This document shows positions 8,233 to 48,737 of a stretch of DNA of 64,000 nucleotides, in pieces (within the stretch, counting starts at the first letter, position 1; every line of letters begins with the position of its first letter). The notes below the pieces were generated by a model. The model was not told the DNA's origin and searched no databases. It saw only the letters and a list, made by a program, of their open reading frames with translations. Made by a program: the position numbers and the translations under genes. Source of the stretch: an uncultured Acidobacteriota bacterium (GTDB taxonomy: Bacteria > Acidobacteriota > Vicinamibacteria > Vicinamibacterales > SCN-69-37); assembly GCA_963780895.1 (NCBI GenBank), contig CAWAEG010000007.1, positions 128,289 to 192,288 of the forward strand, in the 5' to 3' direction.

Positions 8233-8290
8233 GGAAGAGGCCCAGAGGCTCGAGGGCGTACAAAAGAAAAGGGGGATACTGGACGAGACG

Positions 8291-9327: not shown

Positions 9328-9333
9328 CGGGCC

Positions 9334-10113: not shown

Positions 10114-10325
10114 TTCATCCTCCGGTGCGTGACGTCGCCCATCCGGTAGAGCCCGTCCATCGACCCCTTGCCTTCGCGCGCCGCCAGCATCTTGTGTTCA
10201 GCCGCCGGCTGCATCTTCTCCAGCATGGCCTGCTGCATGGCCTTCTTCTGCTCCGGGGTCGGCTGCTGGGCACTGGCGACCGTGCCGCCGGATATCAGGG
10301 ACAGAATCAACAGCACGCGAGTCAT
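10110..10325 (-). CDS. small secreted protein (71 aa)
   Basis: Start chosen at ATG 10325 (MTRVLLILSLISGGTVASAQ signal peptide), with GGAGG 7 nt upstream. Lies between the ArsR and SRPBCC genes on the same strand. Confidence 0.55.
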   Translation of the reverse strand: MTRVLLILSLISGGTVASAQQPTPEQKKAMQQAMLEKMQPAAEHKMLAAREGKGSMDGLYRMGDVTHRRMK

Positions 10326-10366
10326 CGAGTTCCTCCTACGAGCCATTTCCATCGATCCTTCCTGGG

Positions 10367-11068: not shown

Positions 11069-11102
11069 GCGGCATCCTATATTTGAAAATTTATTTTGTC
11101 AA
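11069..11102 (-). promoter_or_regulatory. sigma70-like promoter TTGACA-N17-TAGGAT predicting a leaderless arsR-family mRNA
   Basis: On the minus strand, TTGACA (11102-11097), a 17-nt AT-rich spacer, TAGGAT (11079-11074), then 5 nt and the ATG at 11068. This is the only strongly AT-rich patch nearby, and there is no SD. Confidence 0.45.
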
Positions 11103-11372
11103 ATCGAATCGTCGGGATCCCCGGCCGGGTCCGATCGCAGTCGCATGCGCCGCGGCGGCCGGGCGCCACTCCTTCGCACCGTGCACACGCGCGGCACGTC
11201 CGCCATCTGACACGCCGGCTGTGTAAGAACCTCCGCACTGTGTAGAAGTGCGCGACGACCCCTCGGCCGCTTCGCGCACATTTCTTCCAGAACTTGCTGC
11301 TCGCGACTGGCATGGGGCGTGCTACTTTGGAAGAGCGACCGATGTCCATCGGGACGCGAAAGCGAGGCGGTC

Positions 11373-31392: not shown

Positions 31393-31544
31393 CGGTCGTA
31401 CACCGCGATGAGTCTATGTCGAAGGGCCGCCGCTTGCCGCAAGGCAGCGTGATCGGCCGCCTGCCTCGCGGCGCTCGCAAAGGTCGGTCACCGGAACACG
31501 CGACACCGATCTGGAAAACGCTGTAGGGGGCCGCAATCCACCGG

Positions 31545-34684: not shown

Positions 34685-34720
34685 GATGCGGCGTCGTCCT
34701 CCGCTGAAACTCGTGACCCT

Positions 34721-34821
34721 AGGGCCGTTCTCACTTTCCTGTAGCGAGCTAATTGCTCAATTCTGCCGAAAGTCTCGCGACCCTTGTCGATTTTGCTCTA
34801 CGAGGAAGTGAGAACAGCCCT
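34721..34821. repeat. ~100-nt inverted-repeat element, copy 2 (arms agggccgttctcactttcc / ggaagtgagaacagccct)
   Basis: Arms at 34721-34739 and 34804-34821. It starts 36 nt upstream of the SIR2 ATG, and its distal arm covers the stop codon of the FadL-like gene. Colinear with the 5321-5419 copy. Confidence 0.7.
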
Positions 34822-36169
34822 AGTATCGGATCACAACGGAAAACGTTACGTACTTGGTCTGGGCGGCCAGGTCGGCCGCGCCGTTGATTTCCAGCCAGCG
34901 GGCCGGCGCCAGTCCGGCCCCGAAGGTGTAGTGGGCCTGCGAGGAGCCGCCGGGCAGGGTGGCCATGAACAGCCGATCGACGTCGTCGAGCGCCGGTGAA
35001 GGGTCGTAACGGACGGTGTGATCGGGGTCGTGCCAGAACCCGCCGCGAAGGGCGAGCGGGATGGGCGCGTTCGGAAACAGGTACTCGGCGCCGACGTGGA
35101 ACTCGTTGCCGTCGTCCAGCAGGAGCCGCTCGGGCCGCTGGCTGATGAGCGACTGGAAGAAGATGAAGTCTTCCTTGAGCTGGCCGTACTGCACGCGGTC
35201 GTAGTCCATCACCAGGCGGAGCGCGTCGGTCGCGCGCCACTCCACGCCCAATCCGAACACGTCCGGAACCTTGAATTTGCCGACTCTAAGCAGGTCGAGG
35301 CCGATCGAGGGCGCGAGATCCTCCTGCGTGAACGTGAACGCCGGTCCGCGACGGTAGGTTGCGCCGACTTTGACGCGCGGCACGACATCGAAGAGGACGC
35401 CGGCGTTGACGCCGGCCGTCCAGTCGTCTGCTCGCTGAGTGGCGGTGGCGGTGGTCAGATTCAAATTCGGCACGCCCGCGAAGTTGCCCTCAACCCCGAA
35501 CCGTGCGAAATCAGCCTCCAGGTCGAACCGGTACAAGGCAAGCCCACCGCCAACCGACAATCGCTCAGACACTTTGTAGCCGACCGAGCCACCGTAGTTA
35601 CGGATCCGCACGGCCCTCGTGCCGCCGACGGGGGTGGTCCGCGTGCGATCGTCGACGACGCCCAGCTCGACGGCGCGCTCAAAGACGCCTTGACTGAAGT
35701 ACGTGTTCTCGATCGTCGCGACCTCATGGCGATAGCCGATCACGCTCGCCTTGGCGCCGATTGGCCAGAGAAACGAGACAAACGCGGGGCCGAACTGATC
35801 GTCGATGTCTTCCCGGTACACAGGGGTCGGGATGGTGTCGAGCCCGATATTGGTCACGGTGCCGGTGATTCGGCCGCCGAACAGAAACGGCGTTTCCAGC
35901 CGCTTGAATCGCAGTTCCGCCGAGATCTCCCGGCGTCCGAGCCGCGCCAGACCCGCCGGATTCGTGAACGCGGCGGTCGCATCGTCGGCGGCCGCGATGA
36001 ACGCGCTGCCCATGCCCACGCTGCGAGCGCCGGGTGGCAGGAAGTCGAACTGCAGCGGCAACTGCACCGTGTTCTGGGCAAAGGCCGGCTGCGCGGCCGT
36101 GATCGCGACAGTCGTCGCGACTGCCGCTGCCAGGCGTCCGTACCCAGCCCGCCGGGCCATCAACCGCAT
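34820..36169 (-). CDS. outer-membrane transport protein, FadL/OmpP1/TodX-like
   Basis: Start at ATG 36169 (MRLMARRAGYG...AFAQ signal). GARSVGMGSAFIAAADDATAAFTNPAGLARL is the family's N-terminal hatch motif. Beta-barrel-type alternation, ending ...TFSVVIRY. Confidence 0.7.
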   Translation of the reverse strand: MRLMARRAGYGRLAAAVATTVAITAAQPAFAQNTVQLPLQFDFLPPGARSVGMGSAFIAAADDATAAFTNPAGLARLGRREISAELRFKRLETPFLFGGRITGTVTNIGLDTIPTPVYREDIDDQFGPAFVSFLWPIGAKASVIGYRHEVATIENTYFSQGVFERAVELGVVDDRTRTTPVGGTRAVRIRNYGGSVGYKVSERLSVGGGLALYRFDLEADFARFGVEGNFAGVPNLNLTTATATQRADDWTAGVNAGVLFDVVPRVKVGATYRRGPAFTFTQEDLAPSIGLDLLRVGKFKVPDVFGLGVEWRATDALRLVMDYDRVQYGQLKEDFIFFQSLISQRPERLLLDDGNEFHVGAEYLFPNAPIPLALRGGFWHDPDHTVRYDPSPALDDVDRLFMATLPGGSSQAHYTFGAGLAPARWLEINGAADLAAQTKYVTFSVVIRY

Positions 36170-37209
36170 GGCCCGTTTCGAATGAATGTCACTCGGATAG
36201 TCACTTCGGCATTCCCGTTTGGAGTGACGACCTCCAGCGTGACGTCTCGGTCCGTGACCGTCCCGACGTTGCCGGATCCAAAACTGCCGCACCCGAGTCC
36301 GAGGCCAGACAGCGTCGGACTTGTGCGTGACACCGTGAGGACGTTATTCGACTGTGGAAATCTCCAGATGTAGTTGGTGATCCCGCCCTGTGGCGTCGAC
36401 GCGCCCGCGTCAAACGTACATTTCATGAGGTTCGTTGAGCCTCCCCCGGGCGCGGGAATCGACTGCACTTCGCATTGTTGACCCGTCGCGATCGTGTTGG
36501 GGTCAGGGATCACTCGGAACGTGGCGACGATCGGCACGGCGTTGATCGCGAGATTGGCAGTACGCGTCGTAGCCCCGAGTGTTCCTGTAATGGTGACGTT
36601 CGCCGCCGCGGCGGTCGTGACGGTCACCGTGAATGCCGCCGTCGTATTGCCCTGGGTGACGGTGACGCTCGTCGGCACCGTCGCGGCGCCGCTATTGCTC
36701 GACAAGCCGACCGTGGTCCCGCCCGATGGCGCTGGCCCCGAAATCGTCACGGTGCCCTGGACGGTACCGATGCCGCTCACCGCCATCTGCGCCAGCGTGA
36801 CCGACACCAAATCGATGGGCGCGGCGGTGACGTTGAGGTTCGCCGTCTGCGCTCCGCCAAAGTTCCCGGTAATCGTCGCCGTGCCGGCCGAGACTCCCGT
36901 CACCGCGAAGTTGGCCGATTGAGATCCTTCTGGAATCGACACCGTGCCGGGTACGGTCGCAACGCTGGTATTACTGCTCGACAGCGTCACACCCGCGCCG
37001 CCGGTTCTGGCCGCGGCCGAGAGTGTTGCGGTTCCCTGAATCGTCTGCCCGGCGACGACCGAACCGCCTGACGCGAGCGTGATCGACTGCAGCACCGGTG
37101 TCGGCGCGTTGTTGCCGCCGTTGCCGTTACCGCCGCAGGCGGACAGCCCGCCGAAGGTCACGAACGCAGTGACGAACCCCACGATGCGGGAACGTTGGAT
37201 GTGAGACAT
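36160..37209 (-). CDS. lipoprotein with three Ig-like (Big-type) repeats and a Cys-containing C-terminal domain
   Basis: Start at ATG 37209. Lipobox GGLSAC. Three ~70-aa repeats of the form V..G.T.QGT.T.S......G..V.LSS.N..VATVP..V....G...A.F.V.......TITG......TANL.V.A. Confidence 0.7.
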   Translation of the reverse strand: MSHIQRSRIVGFVTAFVTFGGLSACGGNGNGGNNAPTPVLQSITLASGGSVVAGQTIQGTATLSAAARTGGAGVTLSSSNTSVATVPGTVSIPEGSQSANFAVTGVSAGTATITGNFGGAQTANLNVTAAPIDLVSVTLAQMAVSGIGTVQGTVTISGPAPSGGTTVGLSSNSGAATVPTSVTVTQGNTTAAFTVTVTTAAAANVTITGTLGATTRTANLAINAVPIVATFRVIPDPNTIATGQQCEVQSIPAPGGGSTNLMKCTFDAGASTPQGGITNYIWRFPQSNNVLTVSRTSPTLSGLGLGCGSFGSGNVGTVTDRDVTLEVVTPNGNAEVTIRVTFIRNGPCG

Positions 37210-37341
37210 GTCAACCTTCCTGGCCGAAACCTTCACGAGAAACGCCCGCTGGGGAGTTGCAGGGCGCGAAAACAGGCGTGGGGAGCTGGAATCTTAGCAG
37301 ACTCCCCGTTTGGTGAGGATGAAGCAGACTGGCCGCCCTCG

Positions 37342-38742
37342 TTACGACCCGGGCGTGAACAGCCGCTGCAGGGCGGAGAAATCGTAGCTGAGCCCGATCT
37401 GTCCGCGGACGAACCGCTCCTTCGTCAACGAATTCGGATCATTTGTGTAGATGATGGAAACCGGGATCCGTCCCCCGCCTTTCACGGGCACTTCGACGCT
37501 GGTGAAGATCTTCCAGGTGTCTTCGGCCGGCACCGGCAGAGAGGCCGTATCGGTGAACATCGCCAGACTCCCGCCGACACTCCAGTCGAGCGTCCGGCCA
37601 GCCACGATGGCGTTCGGCACCAGGTGCAACGTCACGCCGCCGGACACCGTCCAGATCTTCGTCTGGAACAACTGGTCGACGCCGAGCCGGATGTCGTCGG
37701 TCAACGCGTACTGCGCGTTCAGCGTGAGGTCCGACGGGCCGAGGCCGATGTCGAAGAGCGCGGCGAACGCGTATTTGTTCCGGCCGGCTTCCTGTGTCAG
37801 GTGCGTGCCCGCTACCTTCACGCTCAATTGCGGCGCTTTGGCGAGGCGCGACTTGATCGCGGCGAGACCTTCGCCGACCTGCTTCGCCAAGAGACTCTGC
37901 ACGATGGCGGCGTCTTCGAGCGCCTGCTGCGGCGGCTCGCCGGCGCGTGGCGCCGTTCCGACAAGAGAGAGCAGCACCGCGGCCTTTTGCGTCAGCAGGC
38001 CGCCGGCCCGGACGGTCGTCGGCGACCATCGTGCGCTCCGGGGATCCTTGTCGCCCCACACCCGGACCTTGACGTCCCATCCGAACGTGTCGAGCAGCCG
38101 GTCGAAGTCGGGGAAGCCGCTGAACCCCGTGATTTCGCTTTCCGGGATTTCCGCGCCGAAGACGACGGTGCCGCTGAACCGGCGCGCGAGCGAGTGCCGC
38201 TGGTAATCGGCGATCGACGAATAGAGATCGGAGTCCTTCAGTGTGACCAGCGCGAGCGCGTTCACGTTGAGGCTGATGGCCGTCTTGTCGGCGCTCGCCA
38301 CACTCGCCAGATCGGCGGCCAGCGCCAGGAGCGACGTCGAACCGCTGCGCTCCGGGAGACCGGACGTCATGGGATTCGTGCTCGTGGCGTTCACCGACGT
38401 CGGGACTCGAGACTCGACCTGTTCGTCGATGAGTGCCTGCACGTATGCCGGCGTGAACAGCGCCAGCAGCTCCGCATCGTCGCGCAGCCGCTCGAGGACT
38501 TTCGTGTAGACCGCGACTTTGGCGTCCCGCGCGCCGGTCAGACGGCGGTCGGCGACGGTGAGGCCCGCATCACGCGCCGCCTCCGCGAGGAATCTCGTCC
38601 ATAACTCCGCGAGCCGTGCGTCCACGGCCGCATCGATTTCCGAGCGGGACGCGCGCTGCGCGTTGGCTGGCGTCGCGGACGCCAGAACGGCAAGCGCCAC
38701 GGCAAGGCCGGCGACGGCACGGCGACAGGTCACGGCGGTCAC
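37342..38742 (-). CDS. secreted hypothetical protein (~467 aa)
   Basis: GTG start at 38742 (VTAVTCRRAVAGLAVALAVLASATPANAQ signal peptide), directly after the TGA of the upstream gene at 38745-38747. The C-terminal half alternates like a beta-barrel. No recognised family. Confidence 0.6.
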   Translation of the reverse strand: MTAVTCRRAVAGLAVALAVLASATPANAQRASRSEIDAAVDARLAELWTRFLAEAARDAGLTVADRRLTGARDAKVAVYTKVLERLRDDAELLALFTPAYVQALIDEQVESRVPTSVNATSTNPMTSGLPERSGSTSLLALAADLASVASADKTAISLNVNALALVTLKDSDLYSSIADYQRHSLARRFSGTVVFGAEIPESEITGFSGFPDFDRLLDTFGWDVKVRVWGDKDPRSARWSPTTVRAGGLLTQKAAVLLSLVGTAPRAGEPPQQALEDAAIVQSLLAKQVGEGLAAIKSRLAKAPQLSVKVAGTHLTQEAGRNKYAFAALFDIGLGPSDLTLNAQYALTDDIRLGVDQLFQTKIWTVSGGVTLHLVPNAIVAGRTLDWSVGGSLAMFTDTASLPVPAEDTWKIFTSVEVPVKGGGRIPVSIIYTNDPNSLTKERFVRGQIGLSYDFSALQRLFTPGS

Positions 38743-38744
38743 GC

Positions 38745-39137
38745 TCAGGCCCGGACGAGAGCGAATCCGACGCTGTGATCGGGATCCTTTTTCGCTTCGG
38801 ATCGCTTTTCGAGGATGTGGACCGGCCCGCCGTCGATCGAGTAGGCGACGCTGTGGCTCCACTCCTTGACGGCATGCGCAAACGCCCAGGCGAGGATGAA
38901 GTCGCCGGGCTTCACGGCGACGGGCTCCAATCGGTCGACGAGCGACTTGATCACTGTCCGGCCGTCGTAGGCGATCGTGTAGGGCACGACCATCGGGCCG
39001 ACGTCCACGATGACGTCGAGGGTTGCGCCGGCCGGCACGACGATGATCGGTACGGCCGCAGCCTGCGCGGCTTCCGCGGCGGGCACCGTCGCAACTTGCC
39101 GCGTGACTCGCTTTCGGGTGCGCGTTCTCCTGGCCAT
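38745..39137 (-). CDS. hypothetical protein with basic N-terminus (130 aa)
   Basis: ATG at 39137 with GGAGG upstream (MARRTRTRKRVTRQ...). First gene of the minus-strand run 39137->34820. Confidence 0.55.
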   Translation of the reverse strand: MARRTRTRKRVTRQVATVPAAEAAQAAAVPIIVVPAGATLDVIVDVGPMVVPYTIAYDGRTVIKSLVDRLEPVAVKPGDFILAWAFAHAVKEWSHSVAYSIDGGPVHILEKRSEAKKDPDHSVGFALVRA

Positions 39138-39235
39138 GCGTGCCTCCGCCGCGCGCGGGAAACCGGCCTGGAACTGTCTCTGGGGAGGCAGGAAAATGTA
39201 GCACACTACAGGCCGCGCCGCGGCTTGGAGGTTCC

Positions 39236-39766
39236 ATGAGTCTGAATGCTCTCAGCAGTCAGGAGATGGTCCGGCGGGGCCTCGCGCCGTGGGCGCGCCG
39301 GCCGCGATCGGGCAACCTCGAAAGCGCCGGCGACTGGGAGCCGCGCCCGATCGCCGACGACAACCGCGTGACGAATGCGCTGAACGCGCTCGTCGGATAC
39401 ATCCCGACCGAGGTCATCACGCTCTACGTCGCCGCGCTCTCAGCCGAAGCGGCGTTCCATGCCACGTTCCCGGTTATCGACGCGGCGGCGATTCTCTGGT
39501 TCTTCGTGGTCCTCACGCCGCTGCTCCTGCTTCTGATTTATCTGAGCAAGGTCGCCGCGACCGGCGACAAGCTCCCGGGGCCGCGGCTCTGGCCGTGGTG
39601 GAAGATGGTCGCGGCGACGATCGCGTTTTTCGTCTGGGCGCTGGCGGTGCCAGGCAATCCGTACTTGAAAGACGCGGCGGCGGCCGCGGCCGGCTTCGGC
39701 GCGATGTTCACCTCGACGCTGCTCAGCGTGATGACGCCGATCTTCGAGCGGCCGGCGCCTGGGTGA
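39236..39766 (+). CDS. integral membrane protein (3-4 TM), unknown family
   Basis: ATG at 39236 with GGAG upstream. Hydrophobic segments ILWFFVVLTPLLLLLIYL, MVAATIAFFVWALAV and GFGAMFTSTLLSVM. Confidence 0.6.
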   Translation: MSLNALSSQEMVRRGLAPWARRPRSGNLESAGDWEPRPIADDNRVTNALNALVGYIPTEVITLYVAALSAEAAFHATFPVIDAAAILWFFVVLTPLLLLLIYLSKVAATGDKLPGPRLWPWWKMVAATIAFFVWALAVPGNPYLKDAAAAAAGFGAMFTSTLLSVMTPIFERPAPG

Positions 39767-39828
39767 AATGACCTCGGAGGTCATTTCCGCGGAAAACCGC
39801 GGCAGGAAATGACCTCCGAGGTCATTTC
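39765..39828. terminator. triple-hairpin bidirectional terminator between convergent genes
   Basis: gaaatgacctcggaggtcatttc (39765-39787), ccgcggaaaaccgcgg (about 39787-39802) and gaaatgacctccgaggtcatttc (39806-39828). The outer palindromes contain the TGA of the + gene (39764-39766) and of the - gene (39822-39824). Confidence 0.7.
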
Positions 39829-41114
39829 AACCCCCTCCACATCGTCCACGGCCCGCGAAACACCAGCGCTTCGGCGGGCGGCAGACCGGCACGCTTCGGC
39901 ATCAGGTTCAGCGCCTGGAAGCCGTCGAGCAGGAGCGGCGGCGAAGCCGGCATGGAGGGTTTGAGTCCTGCCAGCTTCGCGAGCGCCTCCGCGTCGGGCA
40001 ATTGCTTGAAGTAGCCTCGCAGGTTGCCGACCACCGTCCGCAGATCCTGCACCTCGCCCCGCCGCGCCAGCTCGTAGGCGGAGAGCAACGCGACGATCGG
40101 CTCGAACCATTTGAAGTAAAGCAGGAACTGGAGCTCGTTGGCGGTGAGCAGCGTCTTCAAGTCTTCGGCGCGCGCAAAGGCCCGCTGGACTTCGACGCAC
40201 CGGCGGACGAGCCGCAGCGGTCCGCTCACTTCCTTCAGGCCCTCGGTGCTCTGATCGAGCCACAGCCCGCTGCCCTCGGGAAGGGTATTGAGGAACCTCC
40301 GCAGCGGCAGGATGAACTGCTGGATCTGCAGCGGACCTTTGGCCTCTTGCGCGAGCGTCACCAGCGTCCCGCGGCCGTGGAGCAGGCACACGCCGAACGT
40401 GACCGGCGCGTTGCCGTCTACCTGCACTGTCAGGTACCGGTAACCCACCGGGCCGCCCGGAGCGGAGATCTCGAAGAGGCCAGGAAACGCCGAGTGCGGC
40501 GTGACGGGTTGGAGCGGCGTCCGCCAGTCCTTGCTCAATGCGGCGCGTAGCCGGACGTTCGGTTGCTCGAAGCCAGCCAGCGCATAGAAGGCGGTCTCGA
40601 TCTTCGGGCCGTCGAAGCTCGCGAGGGGCAAGGAACCCAGCTTCGAAAAATCACCGGGCCCGCCGGTGATTCGCGCCGCCCCGATCAAGGCGAGCCACAG
40701 GTCGAGGCCCTGATCCGGCGTCGGGCCGAGCGACTCGGAAAAATCGACGGCGCCACTCCCATGCGACCCGTGAATTCCACCGAGCAGCGCGTGGCGCAGC
40801 GGGCTGTCTGGCATCTGCGTGAGATCCATCACCCGCGGACCGGCCTCGAGCGTGACTTCACGGCGATCGATGACGACGCCCCGGTCGTTGTGGGTCTCCA
40901 TCCGGTAGGTGCCGGGCGCGAGCTCGACGGTGCTGGATGCGGTCAGGTGCTCGGTCCTGTCCTTGCCGCCTCGGACGACGACCTGCGCGCCGGCGGGCAC
41001 GACGATGTCGACGACCGCGGTCGGCAGCGGGGCAGCCGCTCCGCCGCCTCCACGTGTGGGGCCGCGACCGGTCCCGGTTCCACCCGTTTCAGCGGCGCGA
41101 CCGAGAGACTGCAC
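39822..41114 (-). CDS. hypothetical protein: beta-rich segment plus ~300-aa helical module (may be the frame-shifted continuation of the caspase-like gene)
   Basis: The track ORF has a GTG start at 41114 and overlaps the upstream gene by 172 nt. An alternative ATG is at 40901. VDIVVPAGAQVVVRGGKD...VELAPGTYRMETHN resembles the beta segment at the end of the caspase-like protein. No recognised family. Confidence 0.55.
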   Translation of the reverse strand: MQSLGRAAETGGTGTGRGPTRGGGGAAAPLPTAVVDIVVPAGAQVVVRGGKDRTEHLTASSTVELAPGTYRMETHNDRGVVIDRREVTLEAGPRVMDLTQMPDSPLRHALLGGIHGSHGSGAVDFSESLGPTPDQGLDLWLALIGAARITGGPGDFSKLGSLPLASFDGPKIETAFYALAGFEQPNVRLRAALSKDWRTPLQPVTPHSAFPGLFEISAPGGPVGYRYLTVQVDGNAPVTFGVCLLHGRGTLVTLAQEAKGPLQIQQFILPLRRFLNTLPEGSGLWLDQSTEGLKEVSGPLRLVRRCVEVQRAFARAEDLKTLLTANELQFLLYFKWFEPIVALLSAYELARRGEVQDLRTVVGNLRGYFKQLPDAEALAKLAGLKPSMPASPPLLLDGFQALNLMPKRAGLPPAEALVFRGPWTMWRGLK

Positions 41115-42154
41115 CTCGAACTGGAGGGCGCAGTCGTCGTAGAGATCTGCCGGAACGGGTCCGTCCGGGCCGGACGATTGTCCGCGCCGGCCTTCTTGGG
41201 CTGCACCTGGACGAAGTAGTCGTCGGGCGGCGCCTGGAACGTGCGTGTCGGACCGGTGAACGTGAAACGGTCAACGACCTGACCCAGGTCGTTCTTCACC
41301 TGCACCTGGAATGCGTCCGTTGCACCCGCGTTCTCGACGTTGACCGAGCAGGTGTACTTGAGCGACGGATCCAGCTTTCGGATGACGCCATCGCCGCCTT
41401 CGCTCCGCGGGTCGACCTCCGTGTCGAGCCGCCGCTCGATGTAGCCCCGAAGAGAGTCGAACAGCACGGTAAACGTCCCTTCGAAGAAACGCTTGGCTTT
41501 GCCCTTGCCGTTCAGCCCGTCGATCAGCGCCTCGGGAAAGCCGCCGGCGACGTTCGCGACAGCCCCGACGGTCGTCGAGCACAGCGTGTAGACCGGCGCC
41601 TTTTTCCGGACGGATGGATCGAAGACGAGACCGAGCGGCGCGACCTTGATGTCTTTTTCGGTGATCTTGTTCCGGCACGCGTCGATGAAGTAGAAGTGCC
41701 CGCACCGCGTCGAGCCCGGCGCCGTGACAGATCCGAGACACATCTTCAGCCATTTCTGGATCTCGTCGAGCTTGAGGCAGGCGTCGCCCGATTCGTCCCG
41801 CTTGACGAAATCAGCGGCGATCAGCACGTCGGCCGTCGGCACGTCGTCCACGTCCACGTACGAAAATCCGTGGCCGCTGAAGTAGAAGAACAGATCATCG
41901 GTCGTGTCTTTCGCGATGTCCTTGAAGCGCTTCAGCTCCTGCTTGATGGCCGGCCGCGTCGCGTCGCTCGTCCGTCCCGTCAGCGCCGGATCTTCCGCGC
42001 AGAAGAAGATGTCCGCGGCCGCCAGCTTCTGAGTGCCGATCAGCCAGTCCCGAAACGCCAGCGCGTATTTGTGGGTGCCGGGAAGCGTGCTGTTGAGCCC
42101 CTCCTGCATGTGGGCGTAGTGTTCGATCGCGATGATGAACGCGCGTTTGGCCAT
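40943..42154 (-). CDS. caspase-like (peptidase C14 fold) protease
   Basis: RAFIIAIEHY..., the His in LFFYFSGHGF and the Cys in HFYFIDACRNK (compare QACRG). The last ~65 aa (RQISTTTAPSSSRCS...SSTSSCPPARRSSS) look like out-of-frame translation. Confidence 0.7.
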   Translation of the reverse strand: MAKRAFIIAIEHYAHMQEGLNSTLPGTHKYALAFRDWLIGTQKLAAADIFFCAEDPALTGRTSDATRPAIKQELKRFKDIAKDTTDDLFFYFSGHGFSYVDVDDVPTADVLIAADFVKRDESGDACLKLDEIQKWLKMCLGSVTAPGSTRCGHFYFIDACRNKITEKDIKVAPLGLVFDPSVRKKAPVYTLCSTTVGAVANVAGGFPEALIDGLNGKGKAKRFFEGTFTVLFDSLRGYIERRLDTEVDPRSEGGDGVIRKLDPSLKYTCSVNVENAGATDAFQVQVKNDLGQVVDRFTFTGPTRTFQAPPDDYFVQVQPKKAGADNRPARTDPFRQISTTTAPSSSRCSLSVAPLKRVEPGPVAAPHVEAAERLPRCRPRSSTSSCPPARRSSSEAARTGPST

Positions 42155-42174
42155 GAGGTGTCTTGGGCGGGCGG

Positions 42175-43134
42175 CTACGGCGTACGGGTCGCGTCCGCGA
42201 CGAACTCGGCGGCCGCCGCAGCCGACACCGCGCCGTTCCGGTACATGAACTCACCGGTGAAGTGGAGGCCCACGACCGCGCCCGTCTCGAGCGCCATGAC
42301 GGGCGAGCCCGAGTTGCCGCCGAGCGTCGAGCAGTCGTGAAAAACCAGATCGCCGCGCGCGGCGATGAGCTCGCCGACCGCACCGCGCTTGACGCCGTAG
42401 CGGTCCTGGTAAATCGCGTCGACGAAGAGGGGATTGCGGTCGTCTTTGTACGGGTACCCGAGCGTCCCGACCATCAGGTGGGCCGGCAGCGCGCCCGCGT
42501 CGAATTGCAGTACCGGACGCGTGTCGGGTACCTGCACCTGCAGGAGCGCCATGTCCAGCGCCGGGTGAATCGCCACGACCTTCAGGATCGGACACGCCGG
42601 CACGGGTTCGGGTCCGTCGTATTCCTGATAGAAGCGAATCACCGCCATTCCCGAATCGAGCTCATCCGCCCCGTGCGAGAGCACAGAGACCACATGGTGG
42701 TTCGTCAGCACGAGATCGGGAGCGACCAGGAACCCTGTGCCGACGTGCGGATTGGACCCGGCGGTGCGATCGAGACGGCCGACCGAATACAGAATCGGCG
42801 CGCTGTTCGTGCAGAACCGATCCCAGGCGGCCGAGACCTGCGGCTGGTAGACGCTGCTGCCACGCTCGGCCGGCAGGGGCTGCAGGCGGCCGCGGATCGA
42901 GAGCGGAGCCGGGCGCATCATCCGGATGACGAACTCGAGCGCGGCAAGCTCGGTCGCCGTCGGCCGCTCACGTCCCGATCGCAGCTTGTCCAGCGCGGCC
43001 TGCGCCGCCTGTTCGCTGTCAGGCACCTTCGGCAGGCCGACAATGGCCCGGACTTTCGCGACCGCCTCGTCAACGCGGAGTTGACCGAACGTCCGCTGGG
43101 CCCGGCCGTAGAGATTCTGGTCGTCGGTCGCCAT
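42175..43134 (-). CDS. trypsin-like (chymotrypsin-fold) serine protease with N-terminal extension
   Basis: Start at ATG 43134. Triad context GTGFLVAPDLVLTNHHV, DMALLQV and STLGGNSGSPV. The ~120-aa N-terminal region is unassigned. Confidence 0.8.
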   Translation of the reverse strand: MATDDQNLYGRAQRTFGQLRVDEAVAKVRAIVGLPKVPDSEQAAQAALDKLRSGRERPTATELAALEFVIRMMRPAPLSIRGRLQPLPAERGSSVYQPQVSAAWDRFCTNSAPILYSVGRLDRTAGSNPHVGTGFLVAPDLVLTNHHVVSVLSHGADELDSGMAVIRFYQEYDGPEPVPACPILKVVAIHPALDMALLQVQVPDTRPVLQFDAGALPAHLMVGTLGYPYKDDRNPLFVDAIYQDRYGVKRGAVGELIAARGDLVFHDCSTLGGNSGSPVMALETGAVVGLHFTGEFMYRNGAVSAAAAAEFVADATRTP

Positions 43135-43141
43135 CGCGCGT

Positions 43142-44428
43142 TCAGGAGATCGTGTTCTCGAAGATCTTCGTGCCGTCCGGCAGCAGGACACGTTCGGTCA
43201 GCTTCGGTCCGTCGAAGTGGAGCGTCATGTACGCGTGCGGGACGAAGTCGTTCTCCCGACCCTTGATGTCGGGGTTCGGTCCGTCGAGCGCCAGGCAGCG
43301 GGGGCTCCACGGCTTTTGCGGATTGACTTCGAGCCGCTTCCACGTGACGTAGGTTTCAGTTCGCTCCGTCGGCGCGCTCCGCACTTCGCGCTTGCGCGCT
43401 TCGGGGATGCCCCCGTTGCCGAGGCACCTCGCGAACAGTCCCCAGTCCGTGTGTTTGTCGTACAGCACGCACTGGTGCTCGTGCCCCCAGTACCATGCGG
43501 TGATCGTTCGGCCCGCGAGCAACACGTCGAGCTTCGCCTTGAGGCCCGTCCCCTGGTTGTCGAGCCTCGAGAACAGTTGCTGGTGTGAGAACAGGACAAC
43601 TTTCCGCTGCCCTCGGCCGTTCACCAGCTGCTCCAGCCACGTCACCTGCTTGGGATCCATGTCGTGGTCGACATACGCCGTGTCGAGCCCGACGATCAGC
43701 CAGTCTTTGTTCTGCATCGCGAAATAGCTGGCCGCCTGGTTGAATCGCGGCAGCACGATGTCGAAGTAGCCGTACCCGCCGGAATACATCTCGTGATTCG
43801 AGTTGATCGCGCGGTGCAGGCGGCCGGCGCCGAACGGCCAGAGTTTCAGAAACCGTTCTTTGACTTCCTCCGCGGTTCCCGAGTAGTAGACGTCGCCCAG
43901 GTGCAGCACGAGGTCGAATCCGCCGGTCGCGGAGATGTGCTGCGCGATTCGGGGCGCGCCGTACAGGCCCGTGCCCCAGTCGCCGGCCATGGCCACCTTG
44001 AATGAATCCGGCACGGTCTCGGGCGGCGCCGTCGACCACACGAACGGATGCGCCTCGTCCCGCTTGACCCAGTCGAGCGTGCTCTTGAGCCATCCGAACC
44101 AATCGCGCCCTTCGAACCCTGTGCCGAACTTGACCTCCTGTCCGCCCGGGCCGAGCGGCTTGCCGTCGAGCGCGAGCTGCGCGAGCCGGCTCTGCAGTCG
44201 CGAGACTTCGGCGTCGGGTGCCGTCACCATCACGTCGTCGCCGGATTCGGCCGCTTCCTCTTCGAGACGATCGCGGAGCCGGCGGTACTGGCTGAGGAGC
44301 ATCGCCCGCTCGACCTGATCGACTTCGGCTTTGACGTTTGTTGCTTCGGCCGCTTCGATGCGGCTCGGTTCAGGAAGGCTGCGCACCGTGACGATCGCGT
44401 CGCGTGCAGAAAGGGACTGGTCGGCCAT
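43142..44428 (-). CDS. calcineurin-like metallophosphoesterase with N-terminal coiled-coil extension
   Basis: Motif series AMAGDWGTG, HLGDVYYSG, NSNHEMY, VLFSHQQ and WYWGHEHQ. The ~130-aa charged N-terminal region is unassigned. Confidence 0.8.
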   Translation of the reverse strand: MADQSLSARDAIVTVRSLPEPSRIEAAEATNVKAEVDQVERAMLLSQYRRLRDRLEEEAAESGDDVMVTAPDAEVSRLQSRLAQLALDGKPLGPGGQEVKFGTGFEGRDWFGWLKSTLDWVKRDEAHPFVWSTAPPETVPDSFKVAMAGDWGTGLYGAPRIAQHISATGGFDLVLHLGDVYYSGTAEEVKERFLKLWPFGAGRLHRAINSNHEMYSGGYGYFDIVLPRFNQAASYFAMQNKDWLIVGLDTAYVDHDMDPKQVTWLEQLVNGRGQRKVVLFSHQQLFSRLDNQGTGLKAKLDVLLAGRTITAWYWGHEHQCVLYDKHTDWGLFARCLGNGGIPEARKREVRSAPTERTETYVTWKRLEVNPQKPWSPRCLALDGPNPDIKGRENDFVPHAYMTLHFDGPKLTERVLLPDGTKIFENTIS

Positions 44429-44587
44429 TCCGTGCTCCCGTCTGGTTGTCGGCTGGGGTAGGCCATTTTAAGGGAATCTTCGCTTGGCCAATCGCGGGAC
44501 GTCGTGTAGCGTATCGAAACCCCAGCAGTCGCTCTCCAATATTCATTTTCGGGTACCGGTCCGGGTGTTTCCACGAAGGAGTGACGT

Positions 44588-45481
44588 ATGGCGAAGCGGA
44601 GAACGAGGCGTGCGGGCGATGAGCTGCGTCGATCATGCGGCGCGATGGCGTCACACATGGCGCTGCTCGAACAGGTGCCATCGTTTCGCGTGAATCAGGC
44701 GCGGCTCGAAAACGCCACGACCCGACGCCGTGAGGCGCCGATCAATCTGAAGAAGGCCAAGGTCGTCACCGTCAAGACCGTCGTCCACGTCGTCTACAAG
44801 ACCGACGACCAGAATATTTCCCAGGCGCAGATCGAGAGCCAGATCAAGGCGCTGAACAAGGACTTTCGCGCGACGAATCCCGATCGCAAGCAGACGCCGG
44901 AACCCTGGAAGGGCCTGGTGACCGACACACGGGTTCAGTTCAGGCTCGCCAAAGTGATACGAACCAAAACGAGCAAGAACGGGTTCAGCTTCGACGACGG
45001 CGTGAAGTCCACGGCCACCGGCGGAATCCCGCCTCAGGATCCGACGACCCACCTCAACATGTGGGTGTGCGCGCTCACCGGCGGACTGCTGGGCTATGCG
45101 CAGTTTCCCGGCGGTCCCGCCGCGACCGACGGCGTCGTGATCAACTACCGGGCGTTCGGCACGACCGGGACGGCGCAGGCGCCCTTCGACAAGGGCCGCA
45201 CCGCCACGCACGAGGTCGGCCATTACTTCAACCTGCGGCACATCTGGGGCGACACGCCCGACTGCAGCGGCTCCGACATGGCCAGCGACACCCCAAACTG
45301 CGCCGGACCCAACACCGGCACGCCGGCGTGGCCGGTCGTCACGTGCAACAACAGTCCGAACGGCGACATGTTCATGAACTACATGGATTACACCGACGAC
45401 GCGGCGATGTACATGTTCACGGCGCAGCAGGTTCTTCGCATGCGGACCGCGCTCGAGAGTCTCCGAAGCGGTCTGATGTAA
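44588..45481 (+). CDS. metzincin zinc metalloprotease, M43 (pappalysin/ulilysin-like)
   Basis: AAGGAG SD before ATG 44588. HEVGHYFNLRH zinc motif, a Cys-containing pro-region (RRSCGAM), and conserved Cys residues downstream. Confidence 0.8.
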   Translation: MAKRRTRRAGDELRRSCGAMASHMALLEQVPSFRVNQARLENATTRRREAPINLKKAKVVTVKTVVHVVYKTDDQNISQAQIESQIKALNKDFRATNPDRKQTPEPWKGLVTDTRVQFRLAKVIRTKTSKNGFSFDDGVKSTATGGIPPQDPTTHLNMWVCALTGGLLGYAQFPGGPAATDGVVINYRAFGTTGTAQAPFDKGRTATHEVGHYFNLRHIWGDTPDCSGSDMASDTPNCAGPNTGTPAWPVVTCNNSPNGDMFMNYMDYTDDAAMYMFTAQQVLRMRTALESLRSGLM

Positions 45482-45482
45482 G

Positions 45483-45818
45483 GTGGTGAGAGCGACCCTG
45501 ATGACCGCGAAACGCCGGTCCGGCGATCTGTTTTCGACGAGATGGGTGCACGTGTTCGAAGAGGACACCCCCGAGGGCGCGGTCTATCGTCCCGACGACG
45601 AGCACGTGCCGCTGTCGAGGAAGCCGCGCGGCTGGCTGGAGTTCCACGAGGATGGATCCGCGACGATCTTCGCGCCGGGGCCCGACGATCGTCCCGTCGA
45701 GCGTGCGACCACGTGGCAGGACGCGGGCCAGGCGCGGCGCACCCGTGGCGCAAACCCGGCTGAGCTCGAAATCGTCGGTCGCTCGCCTTCGCGGGTCGTC
45801 GTCAAGCACCAGCCGTAA
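45483..45818 (+). CDS. hypothetical protein (111 aa)
   Basis: GTG 1 nt after the M43 stop (alternative ATG at 45501). Ordinary composition and no recognised motif. Confidence 0.45.
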   Translation: MVRATLMTAKRRSGDLFSTRWVHVFEEDTPEGAVYRPDDEHVPLSRKPRGWLEFHEDGSATIFAPGPDDRPVERATTWQDAGQARRTRGANPAELEIVGRSPSRVVVKHQP

Positions 45819-45824
45819 GCGGCG

Positions 45825-48737
45825 CTACCGCCGGCCTTTGACCTGCCAGACCCCGACGTCGGCCGGGTAGAACATGTCGAAACTGGTGGGCTGGCCTGCG
45901 CTGTTCATGATCCAGACGGCGACGAATGTCGAGACCGTGTCCTGGAGCAGGAGGTCGAGAATGCCGTCGCCATTCAGATCTTCGCTGCCCACCACGCGCC
46001 AGCTGCCGGTGCTGGCGAAGTACACGGGCACGAAGCTGATCGGCTGACCCGAGCTGTTCATGATCCACCCGCCGACCAGGGTCGAACTCGACTCCTGCAG
46101 CACGATGTCCAGGATCCCGTCCTGGTTGAGGTCCGCCGTCGCCACGACACGCCAGCCATTGACGTTGTCGAAGTAGACGGGGATGAAGCTCGTCGCCTGA
46201 CCGGCGCTGTTCATGAGCCAGGCCGCGACGTAGGTTGTCGCCGTATCCTGCAGCAGGATGTCGGCGATGCCGTCGGCATTGAGATCCAACGTGCCGACGA
46301 CCCGCCAATTTGCGACGTCGGCCGGATACACGAGCACGAAGCTCACGGGCTGACCGGAGGCGTTCATCAGCCACGCGCCGACGTACGTCGACTGGGGGTC
46401 CTGCAGCAGGATGTCACCGATGCCGTCGGCGTTCAGGTCGACGCGGCCGACGACTCTAAAACCCAGCGTATCGGCGGGGTACACGTCCACGAAGCTCGCC
46501 GTCTGTCCGGCGCCGTTCATGAGCCACGCGCTGACGTGGCTCGACGACTGGTTCTGCAGCAGGATGTCGCCGATGCCATCGCCGTTGAGATCCGTGATCG
46601 GGCGAGTCGTGAAGCTCCACCATTCGCCGCCGTTGGCTGTCGTCGTGCCCGATATACTGACGGCGCGAACCTGCCAGCGATACGTCGTGTTGGACCTGAG
46701 GCCCAACGCCGACGCGGTTGTGGCGACGCCGACGTTGATCCAGCTCGTGTCACACGCGTTGTTGGGCGTGGTATCCACGCAATACTCATAGCTGCTCGCG
46801 CCGCTGCTCGTGGCCCACGAGAGCGTCACGTTCGCCGGTTGCCCGGCGGCGCCGTTCGGCGGACTGATCTTGAAGAGCGCCCCGGGCACGGGCGTGTTGA
46901 AAACGACCGTTGCCGTCGTGCCGCTCCACGTGACGTACCCGCCTTCGAAGTCCGAACGGCGAAGCGCGCCCCACTGGTATTCATCGGACATCGGATGCCC
47001 GAGCGCGCTCGCGGAAGTTCCCAGCTCCTGCCACTTGTCCAGGATGGCGCCCCAGACGCCGAAGGTGCCGAGCTGGCTGTGATGCAGCACACCACGCCGG
47101 CTCGTGCCGTTGCCGAAGTTCTGGAATCTGCCCGGAAGGCCCGAGACGCCCGATGGGACCGCGGAAATCACCTCACTCTGCGGGAAGGCGAGGCACGTCG
47201 CGAACGATCCGGGCCAGCCCGTCCAAGTTGTCGTCCCGCAGGTGGCGGCATTCATGACGCGCGTATACGCGGCCACGAAGCTTTGCCGAATCGTCGGGTT
47301 CGTCTCGCCCTCCCCAACGGCGTGCACCGCGATGCCGACGCCGTTCGTGAAGGACGTCAGCAGCGTGAACGACACGTCGATCACATCCGGCACCCAGTTC
47401 GCGCCATTCCACTGGAGCGCTTCCAGCGATGGGAACGGACGCCGCCAGCCGTTCTGAACGAGATAGACGGTAGAGGTTCCCAGCTGCTTGACCAGCAAAC
47501 CGTTCGAGTTGGCATCGAGCGTGATGAATAGCGGCGCGGGCGCGCCGGGGAGGACGAACACCGTCGTGATCGACGACAGACTCCAGCCTGGAACGCTGCC
47601 GTCCGCCATCGCCGCGATCACCGCCGGCGAGACCACGGCATACCGGCGATCGTTCTGCAGCCAGTACACGGTGGAGTCGTTTTGGGTCTTGATGAGCCCG
47701 CCGGCCGACACCCAGCCGGAGTCGCCTAGCAGGCCGATCGTCACCAGGCCGGGATCGTGGATGGCCTCGGCCTGCGCGATCGCGTACGTCATGAGGGAGT
47801 CCGGACTTCCGGCGGGATAGGTGTGCTCGTCGAGATGTGAATAGCTCGATCCCGGCGACCAGGTTGACGGTGTGTACAGCCGGGCACTGAGGCCGCCGTT
47901 GGCCGTGCGGCCCGTCGAGCCGCCCCAGTAGGCTCCGGGCCCTCGGGGATTGCCCGGGTTGTATCCGCTCGTGAGCTGAATGCCCAGCGCGACCGATGGG
48001 TTGACGAAGCCGAGAAGGGGAGCGTCGGTTTCGGTGACCACGAACCGATCGAAGACCGCCGGGAACCCCGACAGGCCGATCGATCCGACGCCGCCACTGA
48101 CGTTCGCGGCCCCGCTGAAGCCGAGGCCGTGTCCGAGTTCGTGGAGCACGACCGTCATGAAATCGTACCGGTTGGCGGGTGTCGCGCCGTCCGTGCCGAA
48201 GTACCAGTTGGCGAACGAGCTGTTGAAATTCGCAACGATGTCGAAGCTCGAGGGATTCCCGGCGTTGAGGTCTGCGCCCGTGACGCGATCCGCGAGCGCA
48301 TCGACGTACCAGCTACCGCTCATGGGAGCGCCCGGAAAGTCGCGCCACACGAGTTGTCCTCCGGCGCTGCCGAGGACGTTCGCGCCGAGCGGCTTGAACT
48401 CCGCGCGGACCTTGATCGGCACCGGACTCGCGACGAGCGTCGACCAGACGTCGACGGCGGCTTGAAACGCAGCCTGCGCGACCGGTACGCCGCCGAACCC
48501 GACGTACGTCACCTCGAATGACGACGTCGGCGCCTGCCCGATCAGGAATTGCCGCAGCGCCGGATTGGGTGGACCTACGAAGGTGAAGGCGTTGCCGGGA
48601 AGCGCGATGAGCCTGCACTCGACTGGCGCGGGTTGCAGGGCGAGCCGTCGCAGGGCAGGGGACACCCCGGCATACGCCAGGATCAGCCCTGCAGCAACGA
48701 CGCTGGCGAGCGGGTGCACGAGCCGTAGTCTACGCAC
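45825..48737 (-). CDS. large secreted multidomain protein: zinc metalloprotease domain, LGFP-like and FN3-like segments, six FG-GAP/VCBS repeats
   Basis: 970 aa. VVLHELGHGLGF, and the FN3-like LSWATSSGASSYEYCV...YRWQVRAV. The C-terminal repeats are DLNxDGIxDILLQ...AWLMN.aGQ. Confidence 0.8.
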   Translation of the reverse strand: MRRLRLVHPLASVVAAGLILAYAGVSPALRRLALQPAPVECRLIALPGNAFTFVGPPNPALRQFLIGQAPTSSFEVTYVGFGGVPVAQAAFQAAVDVWSTLVASPVPIKVRAEFKPLGANVLGSAGGQLVWRDFPGAPMSGSWYVDALADRVTGADLNAGNPSSFDIVANFNSSFANWYFGTDGATPANRYDFMTVVLHELGHGLGFSGAANVSGGVGSIGLSGFPAVFDRFVVTETDAPLLGFVNPSVALGIQLTSGYNPGNPRGPGAYWGGSTGRTANGGLSARLYTPSTWSPGSSYSHLDEHTYPAGSPDSLMTYAIAQAEAIHDPGLVTIGLLGDSGWVSAGGLIKTQNDSTVYWLQNDRRYAVVSPAVIAAMADGSVPGWSLSSITTVFVLPGAPAPLFITLDANSNGLLVKQLGTSTVYLVQNGWRRPFPSLEALQWNGANWVPDVIDVSFTLLTSFTNGVGIAVHAVGEGETNPTIRQSFVAAYTRVMNAATCGTTTWTGWPGSFATCLAFPQSEVISAVPSGVSGLPGRFQNFGNGTSRRGVLHHSQLGTFGVWGAILDKWQELGTSASALGHPMSDEYQWGALRRSDFEGGYVTWSGTTATVVFNTPVPGALFKISPPNGAAGQPANVTLSWATSSGASSYEYCVDTTPNNACDTSWINVGVATTASALGLRSNTTYRWQVRAVSISGTTTANGGEWWSFTTRPITDLNGDGIGDILLQNQSSSHVSAWLMNGAGQTASFVDVYPADTLGFRVVGRVDLNADGIGDILLQDPQSTYVGAWLMNASGQPVSFVLVYPADVANWRVVGTLDLNADGIADILLQDTATTYVAAWLMNSAGQATSFIPVYFDNVNGWRVVATADLNQDGILDIVLQESSSTLVGGWIMNSSGQPISFVPVYFASTGSWRVVGSEDLNGDGILDLLLQDTVSTFVAVWIMNSAGQPTSFDMFYPADVGVWQVKGRR

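Follow-up and report, generated by a model that had tools for sequence, protein, structure and literature searches.

Proteolytic gating of toxic bacterial enzymes has been established experimentally for MBL nucleases, alpha/beta-hydrolases, Pepco and EACC1, and one of the ten protease-associated families catalogued, an enzyme resembling a metallophosphoesterase (MPE), is so far known only computationally and uncharacterised (Evans et al. 2025 preprint, PMC12642450, citing Krishnan et al. 2020). The Canu system (CanABC) couples a caspase to a nuclease by the same principle (Tuck et al. 2025, PMC12799240), the latent hydrolase being encoded next to its licensing protease in all these systems, and 'System 3' of an earlier survey combines multiple trypsin-like/S8 peptidases with a NucA endonuclease (Kaur et al. 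2020, PMC7159879). Here we describe a three-gene cassette on the minus strand of a 64,000-nucleotide stretch of DNA from an uncultured Acidobacteriota bacterium (contig CAWAEG010000007.1 of assembly GCA_963780895.1, positions 128,289 to 192,288; the window, meaning this whole stretch), which encodes an MPE, a trypsin-like serine protease and a caspase-like protease that ends in a large Y4kD_C module. On balance we favour the view that the cassette is a proteolysis-gated, NTPase-free module of the abortive-infection type, in which the caspase protein would sense and initiate and the MPE would execute. The cassette and the region from which it is presumably transcribed are laid out as follows.

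43142..44428, minus strand: gene 1, a 428-aa MPE of purple-acid-phosphatase type (Pfam, Foldseek, conservation)
nt ~44009-44428, minus strand: N-terminal helical extension of gene 1, ~140 aa, ahead of the catalytic domain at nt ~43145-44002
42175..43134, minus strand: gene 2, a 319-aa trypsin-like serine protease (Pfam), starting 7 nt past the gene 1 stop
nt ~42760-43134, minus strand: N-terminal extension of gene 2, ~125 aa
41171..42154, minus strand, frame -1: gene 3, 5' part, with Peptidase_C14 and the first beta-sandwich, starting 20 nt past the gene 2 stop
about 41150-41195, minus strand: frame-change site within gene 3 (tblastn and DNA alignment)
39822..41170, minus strand, frame -3: gene 3, 3' part, with a linker rich in Gly and Pro, then another beta-sandwich and a Y4kD_C module of ~400 aa, ending GPWTMWRG
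40943..41170, minus strand, frame -1: out-of-frame tail of ORF3, non-coding read-through
44429..44587: divergent intergenic region of 159 nt between gene 1 and an M43 peptidase gene, the presumed cassette promoter region (from the layout of the open reading frames, ORFs)

The first-pass annotation had read this region as an operon of four minus-strand ORFs, and their coordinates agree with ours (43142-44428; 42175-43134, with its ATG at 43134; 40943-42154; 39822-41114), as do the gaps of 7 nt between genes 1 and 2 and 20 nt between genes 2 and 3 and the overlap of ORF3 with ORF4, which measures 172 nt. The operon-like packing holds, and all the motifs then picked out were recovered (GDWG/GDVYY/NSNHE/SHQ/GHEH in the first product, TNHHV/DMALLQV/GGNSGSP in the second, YFSGHGF/FIDACRN in the third). 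The three enzyme calls are backed by the Pfam families Metallophos, Trypsin_2 and Peptidase_C14, whose domain bounds also bear out the N-terminal extensions of the phosphoesterase (~140 aa) and of the trypsin-like protein (~125 aa). What had to be revised is the number of genes, which is three, ORF3 and ORF4 being one interrupted caspase gene. A promoter scan of 44429-44587 found no sigma-70-type consensus, a result that is uninformative for this phylum.

Compared with the described systems, the cassette resembles Canu in being a compact, NTPase-free unit of three genes, in which a caspase is followed by an Ig-like fold, as in MALT1, and in which the hydrolase effector, latent in Canu, is separately encoded; in the window the Peptidase_C14 domain is followed by beta-sandwiches with Ig-like Foldseek matches. 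The Canu effector CanC, however, is an MBL-fold pro-nuclease, whereas gene 1 has a Metallophos and no Lactamase_B domain, and the caspase partner CanB has no protease function, unlike the trypsin-like protease encoded by the middle gene here. Gene order also differs, and Y4kD_C is not described for CanA. We thus rejected membership of Canu on the ground that the effector is not of MBL fold. The peptidase-cascade systems of Kaur et al. 2020 likewise hold several peptidases and a terminal hydrolase effector in one operon, and their predicted thresholding by a proteolytic cascade in place of an NTPase is matched by an NTPase-free cassette. The System 3 effector is, in contrast, an HNH/NucA nuclease instead of an MPE, caspase-Y4kD_C is not part of System 3, and neither EAD1 or other EAD nor Death-like adaptors were found by Pfam in the three cassette proteins (E <= 0.1). 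A trypsin-Endonuclease_NS gene of the System 3 type adjoins the cassette in one relative (L003) and probably in two more (L006, L007). The third point of comparison is type III-B CRISPR immunity, in which Steens et al. 2024 reportedly found a proteolytic cascade leading from SAVED-CHAT to PCaspase and driven by cyclic-oligoadenylate sensing. The likeness here is a two-tier protease cascade in bacterial immunity that includes a caspase-fold protease; the cassette differs in having neither SAVED nor a CRISPR component, and its second tier would be a serine protease and its effector a phosphoesterase.

Other named systems were tried and set aside: a gasdermin system, as all three cassette genes belong to other families and the flanks are an M43 peptidase and a small membrane protein; a STAND/Avs system, as there is no P-loop in the cassette proteins and the nearest nSTAND1 gene lies 6.5 kb away; an EACC1 system, as the NF047832 model (caspase_w_EACC1) scored 18.7 bits against a cut-off of 140 and no extra small gene is found in the cassette; and a CRISPR-linked cascade, as the cassette has no SAVED domain or CRISPR component. 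PADLOC, which has no model for the MPE or for Y4kD_C, gave no system match, and together with NCBIfam it returned only generic protease-domain matches for the cassette, those to Avs1b being weak and confined to the protease domain. No curated NCBIfam or Pfam pathway family was matched either, so that neither a named defence system nor a housekeeping pathway claims these genes, in line with the reading of the first-pass annotation; its statement that it could match the gene order to no named system needs the qualification that a protease-associated MPE module had already been catalogued, uncharacterised (PMC12642450).

With that broader class of protease-effector modules the cassette shares an effector gene conserved right beside a protease gene, an effector with an extra conserved segment that is a candidate pro-segment, the swapping of partners and proximity to other defence genes. 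The characterised modules have a single protease fused to a recognised sensor (STAND, Hachiman, ABC3C), whereas the cassette pairs proteases of two catalytic classes and lacks any recognised sensor domain; the catalogued MPE may be of the same family as the cassette MPE. On gene linkage only, the cassette fits the class.

That linkage was assessed in two ways. In a species scan, 185,579 species were each represented by one genome and searched with a single peptide pattern derived from the ORF4-region alignment A1 (window 39825-41180 with caspase-Y4kD_C homologues). It returned 5 caspase-Y4kD_C loci, a lower bound given the single pattern, from Vicinamibacterales, Trueperaceae, an unclassified alphaproteobacterium, Pseudolabrys and Hyphomicrobiales. 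Together with three contigs from an exact look-up these make up loci L001-L008, and in all eight the MPE, trypsin and caspase-Y4kD_C genes follow one another in the same order, on the same strand and with tight spacing. Identities of the MPE, trypsin and caspase proteins drop in step across them, from ~85/84/80% down to ~40/43/32%. The cassette is thus rare and patchy, with occurrences in Acidobacteriota, Deinococcota and Alphaproteobacteria. The second approach started from the MPE, through which a metagenome scan recovered 80 loci, 48 of them informative in that they had enough flanking sequence. These 48 divide as follows.

MPE, then trypsin, then caspase-Y4kD_C: 8/48 loci
MPE, then trypsin, then contig end: 10/48 loci
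MPE, then trypsin, no caspase: 4/48 loci
trypsin, then MPE: 12/48 loci
no adjoining trypsin-like gene: 14/48 loci

The MPE accordingly has a trypsin-like neighbour in 34 of the 48 informative loci, and where MPE and trypsin stand in the window's order with at least 2.2 kb further downstream, caspase-Y4kD_C comes next in 8 of 12. The test of syntenic co-occurrence that the first-pass annotation had called for thus came out in favour of linkage, in the eight loci found through the caspase and in these eight further metagenome loci found through the MPE. Selection acts on every part of the cassette: comparing the window with L004 or L001, dN/dS was 0.11-0.13 for the MPE, 0.11-0.14 for the trypsin-like protease, 0.14-0.16 for the caspase half of gene 3 and 0.27 for its Y4kD_C half. 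The three genes are a conserved, co-transferred cassette. In the window's own lineage synteny extends over the whole neighbourhood, with nucleotide identities of 70-80% among the window, L001, L004 and L017, and the cassette has accordingly been inherited vertically there. In phage and viral collections the caspase was absent and the MPE had 0 matches in GenBank phage records and 4 among IMG/VR contigs, from which we conclude that the cassette is not phage-borne.

In the Trueperaceae locus (L005, 9143-11098) the caspase gene is followed immediately downstream by a second, degraded MPE-like frame (E 4e-32, with internal stops). Right after the caspase gene in L001 (11088-13290) there is an insert of ~2.3 kb with two genes, one of 331 aa without assigned family and one, on the opposite strand, for a CHAT protease of 300 aa; the window and L004 do without this insert, which marks a variable spot adjoining the cassette.

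The Pfam Metallophos match of the MPE spans residues 143-320 (E 4e-9). Across 43 sequences with a mean column identity of 65%, its motif residues D150, D179, Y182, N211, H212, H282, H316 and H318 never vary; seven of them are metal ligands, the eighth being H212. Purple acid phosphatases are marked by the motif set GDxG / GDxxY / GNH(D/E) / VxxH / GHxH with seven metal ligands, typically including a Tyr, and the window protein carries all five blocks (GDWG, GDVYY, SNHE, FSHQ, GHEH) and the Tyr ligand. Foldseek of its AlphaFold (AF2) model (pLDDT 79.5) against the PDB points the same way: purple acid phosphatases of mammals and plants take the first 15 places (E 1e-12 to 2e-8), and after them come GpdQ, Rv0805, acid sphingomyelinase/SMPDL3A and PhoD. 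TM-scores on the target are 0.61-0.66 for the mammalian enzymes and 0.54-0.66 across purple acid phosphatases, GpdQ and Rv0805, and no Mre11/SbcD-type nuclease is found among the top 50 PDB matches. Sequence comparison by phmmer also places purple acid phosphatases first, weakly (E 0.016), no solved relative being close. The likeness to purple acid phosphatases, GpdQ, Rv0805 and acid sphingomyelinase lies in the fold (E 1e-12 to 1e-7) and in the invariant five-block motifs with their GDxxY, at a sequence identity of only 10-17%. By its fold and motifs the MPE looks less like a DNA nuclease than like a phospho(mono/di)esterase acting on small molecules or lipids. The first-pass annotation's assignment to the calcineurin-like phosphoesterases is right as to class, whereas a nuclease role, which it had left open, is not favoured by a fold and motifs of purple-acid-phosphatase type.

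Particular to this family, compared with purple acid phosphatases, are a 140-aa N-terminal extension, helical in the model, and a C-terminal beta-rich part (residues ~354-427), and the enzyme appears to be cytoplasmic and is protease-linked, unlike purple acid phosphatases and related phosphoesterases. A near-invariant block, EVKFGTG..GGDWFGW...DHVDR..AHP, occupies residues ~98-127 in the 43 sequences (F101-H127), and the model is of low confidence over residues 87-121, a stretch that takes in much of it. The family is far larger than that of the caspase: 2,903 matches were found among the candidates scored, many of them 53-57% identical over their full length, N-terminal extension included.

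For the trypsin-like protein, Pfam Trypsin_2 spans residues 132-290 (E 1.3e-18), and in 17 orthologues the His/Asp/Ser triad is invariant and an N-terminal block, AAL-E-V-R--RP, is conserved. The nearest solved sequences in a PDB sequence search, none of them close, are V8/glutamyl endopeptidases and Spl proteases. Enzymes of the V8/Spl type need precise N-terminal processing for activity. Inspection of the sequences revealed no obvious N-terminal signal peptide in any of the three cassette proteins, and Pfam detected no P-loop, STAND, ABC or other known sensor domain in them.

The third gene requires a longer account, as the first-pass annotation had taken it for two. Homologues of ORF4 are mostly proteins of 741-753 aa that open with a caspase domain, and full-length homologues aligned to the window by tblastn follow frame -1 from 42154 to ~41180-41204 and then, free of gaps, frame -3 from ~41177 to 39828. 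The ORF4 frame is open upstream of its GTG and encodes there a conserved P-ADLY-C segment (...PDGPVPADLYDDCALQFEV...) matched in all homologues, while the last ~75 residues of ORF3 (40943-41170), rich in R, P, S and A, have no counterpart in them. The supposed products 3 and 4 are hence a single gene of ~775 aa split by a frame change. DNA alignment gives the window a net +2 nt relative to L004, L017 and L001 within ~41150-41185, in a variable linker. Programmed -1 frameshifting was considered and discarded, there being no X XXY YYZ slippery heptamer, the site lying in a variable linker, and relatives being intact or split elsewhere.

Two explanations of the break compete. The gene is intact, with 774 aa, in L004 (DASQFI010000022.1, cassette at 6745-11344), an Illumina metagenome-assembled genome of Vicinamibacterales that is the closest relative assembled from short reads. 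It is split at other positions in L001 and L013, and L005 has a frame change in its trypsin gene; all three are 'contig_N' records (those of L001 and L013 from ENA/MFD) that we read as long-read assemblies. A cross-check of protein against DNA counted 0 frame changes in L004, 2 in ~17 kb of the window (~31500-48700) and at least 7 in 21 kb of L001 (ENA 'contig_4731'), the last including the FadL, FG-GAP and 513-aa genes; such counts are of use in judging the assembly quality of this data source. Because L004 is intact, the presumed long-read relatives are split elsewhere and L001 has so many frame changes, we consider that in the caspase gene probably to be an assembly indel rather than a real mutation. 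The alternative, which is independent of how the cassette is interpreted, is that the window carries a decaying pseudogene locus with real inactivating mutations, in which case its copy of the cassette would be inactive. We hold this to be doubtful yet quite conceivable, for the only two frame changes in the ~17 kb common with L004 both fall in defence-like genes, the caspase gene and an nSTAND1 gene, and neither lesion has the form of a clean error of one base in a homopolymer. In nSTAND1 the break lies at ~33505-33518, where the window is a net 5 nt short relative to L004, with profile positions 1-69 (the P-loop part) in ORF 32848-33711 and positions 113-372 in ORF 31545-33374. Both sites lie in variable stretches, however, where an in-frame indel together with a one-base error would give the same picture, and both halves of the caspase gene are under purifying selection, although a very recent lesion remains compatible with that. 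A heuristic for frameshifts based on GC3 over-called: sulfatase/bestrophin and HupE/MBL turned out to be separate neighbour genes, and only nSTAND1 was confirmed.

Read as one protein, the product of gene 3 opens with Pfam Peptidase_C14 at residues 3-199 (E 1.5e-9), for which PADLOC offers only its generic 'caspase' model (E 3e-13). An alignment of 15 full-length homologues shows the His of the GHG motif and the Cys of D-x-CRN to be conserved, although P0022 has GHA in place of GHG, and a sequence search against the PDB found no close solved relative. A non-catalytic C-terminal region of ~450 aa follows. ORF4 had no match in Pfam, PADLOC or NCBIfam, the Pfam copy searched being one without the PF27295 model; fragments related to the window protein (P0003, 68% identical to it, and P0017, 52%) carry a precomputed Pfam assignment to PF27295, Y4kD_C, which points to this family for the region. 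A profile search with this module recovered 580 representative clusters among 1.84 billion proteins, and since nearly all of them are ~750-800 aa long with the module at the C-terminal end, fusion to a caspase is the rule. A search of the plasmid collection gave no match to the window's caspase protein or to its Afipia homologue, and a literature search for y4kD yielded nothing relevant.

The AlphaFold model of the ORF4-frame product (pLDDT 82.7, pTM 0.83) is divided thus.

residues 55-119: beta-sandwich
residues 127-172: alpha/beta part
residues 196-292: second beta-sandwich
residues 294-423: helical bundle

Of the ~300-aa helical region that the first-pass annotation had seen here, the model retains the bundle at 294-423, the remainder being mixed alpha/beta and the beta-sandwich at 196-292. 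Against the PDB and BFVD, Foldseek of the Y4kD_C model found only generic Ig-like beta-sandwich matches of low TM, and none for the helical bundle. The candidate sensor of the cassette is a caspase that carries Ig-like domains and Y4kD_C, to which one member of the family (P0190, 1146 aa) adds C-terminal TPR-S ('sensor') repeats.

Y4kD_C also occurs in other arrangements. P0199 (906 aa) has it at the N-terminal end, followed by a Big_2 Ig-like domain, and gives no caspase match. Locus L009 (2526-13357) has separate neighbouring genes for a Peptidase_C14 (392 aa) and a Y4kD_C protein (384 aa), and continues with Amidase_3, Amidase_2, a trypsin (365 aa), an MPE (431 aa), a trypsin-PLD fusion of 950 aa and one more trypsin. 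That Peptidase_C14 and Y4kD_C stand apart here may be an artefact of a presumed long-read assembly.

The surroundings of the MPE family and of the cassette bear on what the module does. Conflict-system genes recur: CHAT, DndB and a recombinase gene near the L002 cassette; TIR/ThsB_TIR, a trypsin-Endonuclease_NS protein and a second caspase near that of L003; transposases and a patatin around that of L013; and nSTAND1, EAD1-trypsin, SIR2_2 and CHAT in L014 and L015. Long contigs with the trypsin gene ahead of the MPE gene have nSTAND1, EAD1-trypsin, Lipase_3, SIR2_2, CHAT and trypsin-PLD genes near. A small defence island on R. rhizogenes plasmid pC6.5d (L096, NZ_MK318989.1 51559-59003), bracketed by IS110 and IS256, contains two TIR genes, a hypothetical gene, a caspase (331 aa) followed by an MPE (457 aa), and a 1108-aa SIR2. 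Where no trypsin adjoins the MPE, an S8 subtilase may stand ~0.7 kb downstream on the same strand (L092) or a TIR-FGE protein just upstream (L090); other trypsin-less loci have unrelated neighbours, and in one context the MPE stands alone beside a patatin, with EAD1/EAD7/nSTAND1 genes near. MPE homologues on a Ralstonia megaplasmid were set aside for their different, metabolic-looking context (choline dehydrogenase, cytochrome c). The defence-island setting that the first-pass annotation had proposed to look for is therefore often found, with TIR, SIR2, CHAT, DndB, nSTAND1 and transposase neighbours, but some loci lie among ordinary metabolic genes. Its remark that the operon has no sensor NTPase of its own is true of the cassette, with the caveat that in the window an nSTAND1 gene lies 6.5 kb downstream, with other genes between.

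This last circumstance, and the ease with which the MPE family changes context, would also suit a different arrangement, in which the three proteins are parallel and independent latent effectors, each with its own extension, switched by an external sensor of the STAND/nSTAND1 or EAD type, and Y4kD_C is a regulatory or oligomerisation scaffold. Conflict systems are indeed known to stack several disparate effectors (PMC7159879), the window, L001 and L004 each have a pair of SIR2_2 and nSTAND1 genes 5-8 kb away, and the TPR-S sensor that follows Y4kD_C in P0190 hints that sensing may not be the role of Y4kD_C. A self-contained unit is favoured instead by the order and tight spacing, which stay fixed across phyla, and by the lack of any NTPase gene next to the cassette, as judged from the Pfam lists of neighbours for L002 and L003 and the sampled neighbours of L005, L008 and L068; the nSTAND1 gene is set apart from the cassette by genes for envelope proteins, and neither EAD nor Death-like adaptors were detected in the three proteins at E <= 0.1. 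We regard parallel effectors under an outside sensor as unlikely.

Returning to the cassette as a proteolysis-gated module, and going by the sequences, it has synteny, purifying selection, apparent catalytic competence (the residues being kept), a protease linkage of its MPE family and frequent conflict-system neighbours; the trigger, who cleaves whom, the role of the extensions as pro-segments, the MPE substrate and the order of the cascade are what we infer. The caspase-Y4kD_C protein, with its caspase, Ig-like domains and Y4kD_C in a layout like that of MALT1 and CanA, would be the sensing and initiating component. A trigger, probably derived from infection, would turn on its proteolytic activity, and proteolysis would remove or rearrange the extensions at the N-termini of the MPE and the trypsin-like protease, carried out either by the caspase directly or with the trypsin-like protease as a second tier or co-protease. 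The purple-acid-phosphatase-like MPE, once freed, might then hydrolyse some phosphorylated lipid or small molecule that is abundant in the cell, nucleotides and the head groups of phospholipids being examples, which would lead to growth arrest or death of the infected cell. A protease cascade in the cassette is plausible. Its most explicit version, a self-contained, NTPase-independent two-tier cascade in which a MALT1-like sensor caspase detects infection and activates a trypsin-fold zymogen, which then unmasks an executioner resembling purple acid phosphatases that kills by removing phosphate from membrane lipids or nucleotides, is one that we put forward tentatively and judge rather improbable in that full form.

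Several observations weigh against gating by proteolysis in defence. The MPE keeps its N-terminal extension also where no protease gene is nearby (L010-L012, and the 14 of 48 informative loci), so the extension need not be a pro-segment removable by a protease, and MPE residues 87-121 are no more than a candidate gate or cleavage region, put forward for their combination of high conservation and low pLDDT. The window's own caspase gene is interrupted, and in its lineage the cassette sits at a stable chromosomal position. Moreover, a rough and unsupported neighbour-joining tree of the MPE scatters the triple cassette over several clades, a distribution that fits an old or repeatedly reassembled module, and in L005, L008 and L068 the cassette has ordinary genes for neighbours (M19 dipeptidase, copper amine oxidase, sigma-54 activator). 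Such flanks, and the stable synteny in three related Vicinamibacterales genomes, would be expected also of a regulated-proteolysis module outside defence, serving a stress response, developmental or starvation cell death, or phosphate scavenging, with an acid-phosphatase-like enzyme that proteolysis activates. In fold, the MPE comes nearest to phosphatases and phosphodiesterases that serve phosphate and lipid metabolism. Mammalian purple acid phosphatase for its part becomes active when a repression loop is cut; entry 2bq8 is among the Foldseek matches of the MPE. Stress-response roles have also been raised for protease-effector modules (Evans et al., PMC12642450). The very sparse, cross-phylum distribution of the cassette, the repeated TIR, SIR2, CHAT, DndB and transposase neighbours and the occurrence on a plasmid all tell against a function of this kind, as does the fact that no pathway family was matched; proteins with no obvious signal peptide, furthermore, are a poor fit with the scavenging of external phosphate. 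A non-defence role thus appears to us distinctly improbable.

Other genes noted in the window around the cassette are the following.

44588-45481, plus strand: M43 (pappalysin-type) metallopeptidase gene, 297 aa, divergent from the cassette
45825-48737, minus strand: FG-GAP/LGFP repeat protein gene, 970 aa, beyond the M43 gene
33704-34684, minus strand: SIR2_2 gene
31545-33711, minus strand: nSTAND1 NTPase gene, next after SIR2_2

The cassette is flanked by the M43 peptidase gene on one side and by the gene of a small membrane protein without family match on the other. The M43 peptidase has no obvious signal peptide. Its gene keeps the same position in L001, homologous DNA is found also in L004, and L013, which is rich in transposases and otherwise unrelated, has an M43 gene ~4 kb away from its cassette. 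SIR2_2 and nSTAND1 form a two-gene defence-like pair that is kept in L001 and L004. Between 37342 and 39251 on the minus strand there are overlapping frames of high GC3, 38745-39206 and 37342-39237, neither with a Pfam match, which may be one gene with a frame change near 38740.

Taken together, neither the principle of gating by proteolysis nor the association of proteases with MPEs is new, the former being known and the latter already catalogued. What the cassette adds is the combination of two proteases of different catalytic class, a candidate sensor not recognised before and an effector of purple-acid-phosphatase type. The work of 2025 has shown lethal bacterial enzymes to be held latent and released by site-specific proteolysis in the case of MBL nucleases, alpha/beta-hydrolases and two pore formers, leaving the MPE class uncharacterised, and the cassette provides a compact, three-gene test case for that class. 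A cysteine and a serine protease side by side raise the possibility of a true two-step cascade, with the large Y4kD_C module rather than an NTPase as the candidate sensor; if the two-tier version were true, its initiator/executioner arrangement and its effector chemistry would be ones not yet demonstrated in prokaryotic immunity. The family is rare among the one-per-species genomes scanned and more diverse in metagenomes, where the loci found through the MPE carry mostly JGI (Ga…) record names, so that defence screens built around E. coli have probably sampled it too little. An effector that resembles a purple acid phosphatase, and not a nuclease, would for its part point to killing by dephosphorylation of metabolites or lipids.

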